Shown in pieces: positions 30,631-30,723 of a stretch of DNA of 64,000 nt (position 1 is its first letter; every line of letters begins with the position of its first letter). The stretch comes from Escherichia coli. Its GTDB lineage: Bacteria > Pseudomonadota > Gammaproteobacteria > Enterobacterales > Enterobacteriaceae. A program made the translations under genes and the position numbers. The notes under the pieces were generated by a model. The model was not told where the DNA came from. It did not search any database and worked only from the letters and a program-made list of their open reading frames with translations. The stretch is taken from the NCBI RefSeq assembly GCF_041886205.1, contig NZ_CP169029.1. One strand, given 5' to 3'.

Positions 30631-30723
30631 TTAACTTTTCAATCGCGGGTCCAGCCATACCAACACAAGGGTGGAGAGCGAACACATCAACAAAATGCCG
30701 ACGAACCAAAGTAAATACCACAT
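30631..30723 (-). CDS. appX: AppX (YccB), 30-aa cytochrome bd-II accessory peptide
   Basis: Hand-translated from reverse strand: MWYLLWFVGILLMCSLSTLVLVWLDPRLKS; not in ORF track. Confidence 0.75.
   Translation of the reverse strand: MWYLLWFVGILLMCSLSTLVLVWLDPRLKS

Follow-up and report, generated by a model that had tools for sequence, protein, structure and literature searches.

Between appB and appA, in the 64,000-nucleotide stretch of Escherichia coli DNA analysed here (the window), lies a reading frame of 30 codons (30631..30723), and a palindrome stands between this frame and appA. The locus raises the question of whether so short a frame is a gene, and of which protein, and of what kind of element the palindrome is. 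The initial annotation had named the frame appX, had likened its product to the single-TM accessory subunits of cytochrome bd oxidases and had described the palindrome as REP-like.

The reading frame downstream of appB

Read on the plus strand, 30631..30723 is nonsense with an internal stop, which places the gene on the minus strand. The interval had been given exactly in the initial annotation, which left the strand unstated. Translation of the reverse complement yields a 30-aa peptide, MWYLLWFVGILLMCSLSTLVLVWLDPRLKS, followed by TAA, and its ATG lies 12 nt past the TAA stop of appB on the same strand, in exact agreement with the description of a very hydrophobic 30-aa peptide encoded directly downstream of appB. 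The Shine-Dalgarno (SD) sequence TAAGGAG, read from the sequence at 30732..30738 on the minus strand, contains the appB TAA stop; it is near-consensus and lies 8 nt before the appX ATG. A scripted scan returned AAGGAG, a 6-nt SD match with a spacing of 8 to the same ATG, and UAAGGAG has likewise been given as the appX SD (PMC9841429).

The neighbouring genes, all on the minus strand, are those of the cytochrome bd-II operon, and the Pfam matches and the annotation agree in placing appB upstream and appA downstream of appX, as had been claimed. appC (31884..33428; 514 aa) encodes subunit I and matches PF01654 (Cyt_bd_oxida_I) with 584.7 bits; it is annotated in strains MB53 and K-12, and its coordinates are those of L001, to which the window is 100% identical over 29200-33500. 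appB (30736..31872; 378 aa), annotated under that name, encodes subunit II and matches PF02322 (Cyt_bd_oxida_II) with 323 bits. The last gene of the operon, also annotated as such, is appA (29253..30551; 432 aa), which encodes the periplasmic acid phosphatase/phytase and matches PF00328 (histidine phosphatase branch 2) with 188 bits. The ORF limits are wider than the annotation for appC (31884..33434, 514-516 aa) and for appA (29253..30551/30581, 432-442 aa).

In a PDB search the peptide was 100% identical, over 30 of 30 residues, to AppX in the cryo-EM structures 7OSE (chain C) and 7OY2 (chain X) of the bd-II complex, the matched chain carrying the title "Putative cytochrome bd-II ubiquinol oxidase subunit AppX". 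CydX of cytochrome bd-I (6RKO) was a weak match in the same search (E = 0.009, about 10 of 24 aligned residues identical). The profiles give a consistent picture. The CbdX equivalog NF011333 of NCBIfam scores 80.8 bits against a cutoff of 57 over residues 1-30 of 30, and the Pfam family PF08173 (YbgT_YccB) scores 45.4 bits against a cutoff of 26.2, whereas the CydX equivalog TIGR02106 stays below its cutoff with 18.9 bits against 31.6. From these scores the peptide is to be classed as the bd-II paralog and not as CydX itself. The same ORF is annotated cbdX, "cytochrome bd-II oxidase subunit CbdX", in strain MB53, and the ortholog at the same position in K-12 MG1655 is annotated appX (b4592), "cytochrome bd-II accessory subunit AppX". 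Translation, identity to the structure chains, profiles and annotation thus all identify 30631..30723 on the minus strand as appX (cbdX, yccB), and both the gene name and the likeness to single-TM accessory subunits are borne out. The initial annotation had added that the gene is missed by length-thresholded ORF calling. This is fair historically, b4592 having been added late to the K-12 annotation, but it no longer holds for current RefSeq, which routinely calls cbdX.

A 30-codon ORF has little significance on length alone, and the 6 kb around appX hold 84 ORFs of at least 20 aa. For a test against chance, all ATG-initiated ORFs of 20-60 aa in the window were listed (n = 586), and SD spacings of 4-11 were allowed. 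Ranked by maximal 19-residue hydropathy, the appX ORF is fourth of the 586 (2.49), and of the three that outrank it, two are alternative starts of a single ORF and the third is the in-frame C-terminus of appB. Among the hydrophobic (TM-grade) candidates, it alone has a 6-nt SD at proper spacing. Residues 2-24 of the peptide are hydrophobic, and its GRAVY is 1.31. The most hydrophobic short ATG ORF of the window is found elsewhere, inside rlmKL (62790-62951, minus strand; 53 aa, 19-residue hydropathy 3.18); it has no SD and is probably an out-of-frame artefact.

The plenty of short ORFs, in the 6 kb around the gene as among the 586 ATG candidates, could be taken to mean that appX too is open only by chance, in the spacer between appB and appA, and is untranslated. 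The probability of this is negligible, given that the same sequence has been resolved as a chain in two structures, scores above curated family thresholds and is the sole hydrophobic candidate carrying a 6-nt SD, and that a divergent locus described below keeps the 12-nt spacing with mostly synonymous change. The structures, together with the identification of AppX by mass spectrometry in the purified complex, already refute it.

Conservation of the locus and the overlapping frame

Of 5,426 complete E. coli genomes, 5,416 match the 4.3-kb app region over at least 80% of its length, and the region is 100% identical to that of strain MB53. The 93-nt appX coding sequence is likewise present at full length and at least 95% identity in 5,416 of the 5,426, and is annotated cbdX in the rows sampled. 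Compared with K-12 AppX (b4592; 7OSE chain C, 7OY2 chain X; NF011333), the window encodes a protein identical in all 30 residues, in the same appC-appB-appX-appA order, with the same 12-nt gap and SD. The two genes differ at two nucleotides, both synonymous, in codons 27 and 28 (CGA TTG in the window, CGT CTG in K-12), and one further substitution adjoins the appX SD; none of these makes a functional difference.

When 1.84 billion representatives were searched exhaustively with phmmer, 12 matched at E <= 0.001, a small number that is expected because the query is 30 aa long. Residues M1, W2, Y3, W6, V8, I10, M13 and L19 are invariant among the 12. One of them is P0003, a 73%-identical AppX homolog of 43 aa from independent metagenome contigs. 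Upstream of its gene there are a 514-aa Cyt_bd_oxida_I gene and then a 378-aa Cyt_bd_oxida_II gene; the gap to the latter is exactly 12 nt, and the junction GAGGAGCAG-AACAATGTGG (SD/ATGTGG) is kept. The 30 codons shared with appX differ by 12 synonymous and 8 mostly conservative non-synonymous changes, and the protein carries a charged C-terminal extension of 13 residues. Downstream of appX at this locus (L005 4133-4262) there is neither appA nor a REP, and the next gene has the convergent orientation; a terminator-like hairpin and its U-run (CCCCAGC...GCUGGGGUUUUUG) come after appX, and the operon ends there. Since appA and the REP are missing here, the conserved unit is appC-appB-appX, and from the comparison of the two loci appA and the REP are to be regarded as lineage-specific additions to it.

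Within the start of appX, ATGTGG, there is an overlapping GTG, from which a 46-codon ORF in the +2 frame (30581..30721, minus strand) runs through the REP. Initiation at the GUG of this AUGUG would give a 46-aa product, and three observations could be cited for it: in this strain the frame runs for 46 codons without a stop, dual initiation is possible at AUGUG sites (PMC9841429), and the database representative P0011 consists of AppX residues 1-20 fused to exactly the +2-frame tail. We nevertheless consider such a product highly improbable and have rejected this ORF as a gene. In the published treatment of AUGUG genes, appX has an SD with an aligned spacing of 15 and a predicted ambiguity of "no" (PMC9841429). 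The AUGUG itself is forced, because Met1-Trp2 is invariant. The +2 frame is unconserved in the divergent homolog, where it stops after 23 codons, and the product that it would encode is not hydrophobic and matches no family. P0011 is probably a frameshift allele or a sequencing error.

The annotation of MB53 was used only for 21584-51494, the part in exact register with the window. Outside or at the edges of this part the two strains differ in several places. An IS3-family insertion of about 1.26 kb occupies 20327-21584 of the window in the cspH-gfcA spacer, with orfA (21219..21527) and orfB (20356..21222) both on the minus strand. MB53, otherwise identical across 21584-51494, is without this element, and K-12 has IS1D in the same spacer upstream of gfcA. 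The spacer looks like a recurrent IS target, because the window and K-12 carry different insertion sequences there. In ompA, at 51494-51565, there is a 12-bp insertion with clustered substitutions relative to MB53 while the flanks are otherwise identical; the difference is an alternative allele in an identical backbone and presumably concerns a surface-loop region. At about 5825-6110 the window is without the IS1A that interrupts a gene of the yccE region in MB53, and agp (4062-5327) is an intact 421-codon ORF in the window, whereas the agp of MB53 has an internal stop and is annotated as a pseudogene. These last two differences show that the window comes from a close relative of MB53 and not from MB53 itself. 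The window also contains an Rfam match to the cspA thermoregulator over the cspG mRNA region (19103-19525, minus strand; 159 bits against a gathering score of 78) and a tRNA at 39456-39540, which is tRNA-Ser in the MB53 annotation.

AppX as a subunit of cytochrome bd-II

As a test of subunit status, the window sequence was compared with the complexes of known structure and is, as described above, 100% identical to the AppX chains modelled in 7OSE and 7OY2. Chromosomal (SPA) tagging by Hemm et al. in 2008 reportedly detected AppX, and VanOrsdel et al. are said to have shown partial cross-complementation in 2013. The initial annotation had proposed co-purification with AppCB and detection of the protein as checks, and experiments of both kinds are already in the literature. 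Grauel et al. expressed appCBX, purified the complex by means of a His-tag on AppC and identified AppX, of about 4 kDa, by mass spectrometry (PMC8585947). In their cryo-EM structure of bd-II at 3.0 A, AppX lies against transmembrane helices 1, 5 and 6 of AppC and superimposes on CydX of bd-I; the material for both mass spectrometry and cryo-EM was plasmid-overexpressed appCBX and not the product of native expression (PMC8585947). Deletion of appX did not unmask the phenotypes of cydX point mutants in a study that treated AppX as a paralog of CydX (PMC6005532). The phenotypes of single-copy appX deletion are subtle.

The relationship to the other small subunits of bd oxidases can be described in similar terms. 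CydX (YbgT; 6RKO chain X; TIGR02106; PF08173) belongs to the same Pfam family and shares the N-terminal motif MWY..W..G.LL.CS. Its gene likewise lies downstream of that for subunit II, and the two proteins occupy the same binding site on subunit I (PMC8585947, PMC8951039). CydX differs in its length of 37 aa as against 30 aa for AppX, in the identity of only about 10 of 24 aligned residues, and in the replacement of the Leu residues of the AppX dimer interface (PMC8585947). A further difference between the two oxidases is that bd-I has a fourth subunit, CydH/CydY, which bd-II lacks (PMC8585947, PMC8951039). CydS of the bd oxidase of Geobacillus thermodenitrificans is also a single helix of about 4 kDa beside CydA, with an equivalent proposed structural role, but unlike that of AppX its helix is tilted towards TM6 and makes no contact with TM4 (PMC8951039). 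No sequence-level match between CydS and the appX peptide was returned by the PDB search.

These data are consistent with the following scheme. appX would be translated from its own strong SD, and the overlap of this SD with the appB stop would favour translation coupled to that of appB. The product, a single transmembrane helix of 30 residues, packs on helices 1, 5 and 6 of AppC (subunit I) and stabilises the fold that binds hemes b595 and d of the bd-II quinol oxidase, as its paralog CydX does in cytochrome bd-I.

A different emphasis is suggested by the amphipol preparation (7OSE), in which two AppCBX heterotrimers dimerise with their AppX helices as the main contact, by way of Met1, Leu4, Leu5, Val8, Leu11, Leu12, Ser15, Leu16 and Leu19 (PMC8585947). 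The window peptide has every one of these residues, and the Leu positions of the interface are reported to be conserved in AppX homologs and different in CydX (PMC8585947). The main role of AppX might then be dimerisation of bd-II by way of a leucine-zipper-like helix interface, and not merely stabilisation of the heme b595/d site. We regard this as unlikely. Dimerisation in the membrane is an open question by the authors' own statement, and AppX sits on the same site of AppC as CydX does on CydA (PMC8585947, PMC8951039). Furthermore, no other bd oxidase structure has been reported as a dimer (PMC8951039), and in P0003 two of the interface residues are changed, Leu4 to Gln and Leu16 to Ile.

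The palindrome between appX and appA

The palindrome (30590..30625) is extragenic, lying inside the 79-nt appX-appA spacer (30552-30630; annotated appA start 30551). Its arms are at 30590-30603 and 30608-30621, on either side of a loop at 30604-30607, and it has a degenerate GTAA head at 30622-30625. Between the appX stop and the stem there are 9 nt, and between the stem and the appA ATG 38 nt. Folded as RNA, the spacer forms a stem of 14 bp, one of them G-U, and a 4-nt loop, with an energy of -30.9 kcal/mol, compared with an average of -16.0 for shuffled sequences (z = -5.09); none of the 200 shuffles folds as well.

The sequence is also a dispersed repeat. A 46-nt query across the palindrome matched 124,270 places in 5,425 genomes (per genome, median 24 and minimum 10). 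Within the window, the left arm GCCTGATGCGACGCT is identical in 15 of 15 positions to a second copy at 8387, in a similar palindrome of the cbpM-torD spacer. A stable stem in the spacer and membership of a dispersed repeat family thus confirm the REP-like palindrome that had been said to separate appX from appA. In K-12 the orthologous element reads GTAGGCCTGATGCGGCGCATTAGCATCGCATCAGGC and has the canonical GTAG head (GTAGGCC...GGC), whereas the head in the window is GTAAGTC, with one substitution within the GTAG tetranucleotide. Judged by this likeness, the window copy is a REP by descent that appears slightly decayed in this strain. We take it to be of Z2-like type, going by the consensus.

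The element shares with the E. coli REPs an imperfect, G+C-rich palindrome of about 35 nt, an extragenic position, transcription within an operon and many dispersed copies. It is unlike them in being a single REP and not a BIME pair, and in the changes of GTAG to GTAA and of GGCC to AGTC in a head that K-12 keeps as GTAGGCC. The second REP of the window, GCCTGATGCGACGCTAAACGCGTCTTTTCAGGC in the cbpM-torD spacer (8343-8421), has a different palindrome, GCCGGATGTGATGACGCATCCGGC, directly before it, and the two are possibly a BIME-like pair. The K-12 record has no REP feature in the appX-appA spacer, which is uninformative because the REP of the cbpM-torD spacer is unlisted too. An Rfam search found no family at the appX-appA locus, which was to be expected, since to judge by that search Rfam has no family for REPs, and a generic palindrome scan of the window did not help to classify the REP.

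A very stable, G+C-rich hairpin immediately after the last oxidase gene could be expected of a rho-independent terminator that ends the appCBX transcript, in which case appA would be an independent gene and the element not a REP. Two further facts could be read in this way: the divergent appX precedes a real terminator-like hairpin with a U-run and has no appA after it, and induction of appA by YdeO is about 2-3 fold below that of appC and appB (PMC4222967). The sequence 3' of the stem on the minus strand, GGCAAUCAAUAAUG, contains no U-tract, however, and the terminator scan made no minus-strand call. The dispersal of the repeat to a median of 24 places per genome and its canonical GTAGGCC...GGC form in K-12 also speak against a terminator. 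In addition, appC, appB and appA are induced together as a single appCBA unit, appA somewhat less strongly (log10 of about 1.33 as against 1.66-1.85; PMC4222967), which is consistent with read-through of the palindrome. A terminator is therefore improbable: from the missing U-run, the terminator scan without a call and the co-induction of appA, we conclude that the element is a REP and not an intrinsic terminator.

The element is included in the operon mRNA. REPs stabilise upstream mRNA segments, and by analogy with REPs elsewhere this one may be a barrier to 3' exonucleases, stabilising the appCBX segment upstream of it, and not a terminator. REPs within about 15 nt of a stop codon reportedly stall the terminating ribosome and bring about tmRNA-dependent down-regulation of the upstream gene, as Liang, Rudd and Deutscher are said to have found (Mol Cell 2015). 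By the same analogy, a REP lying 9 nt past the stop could throttle AppX relative to AppC and AppB, or it could set a stable, processed 3' end for appCBX and thereby uncouple expression of the oxidase from that of the phytase. We put this forward as a speculation to which we attach a low probability. In either case it would be an E. coli-specific regulatory layer, because the locus of the divergent homolog is without a REP and has a plain terminator after appX. REPs have been described as structured targets that need RNase R and PNPase for their degradation (PMC12320835).

Taken together, 30631..30723 is almost certainly appX, the third gene of appC-appB-appX-appA, encoding a subunit of cytochrome bd-II and followed by an ordinary REP. 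Both the gene and the REP are already known, and the window adds nothing new to either. The literature already gives the sequence and structure of AppX and its place in the bd-II complex, and essentially all E. coli genomes now have the gene annotated. bd-II is of importance in gut colonisation and as a target for drugs, and there too the window adds nothing new. An effect of the REP 9 nt past the stop on the stoichiometry of AppX and AppA would, if true, be a minor regulatory detail. What the locus illustrates is a textbook case of a functional protein of fewer than 50 aa that was overlooked by classical ORF callers.
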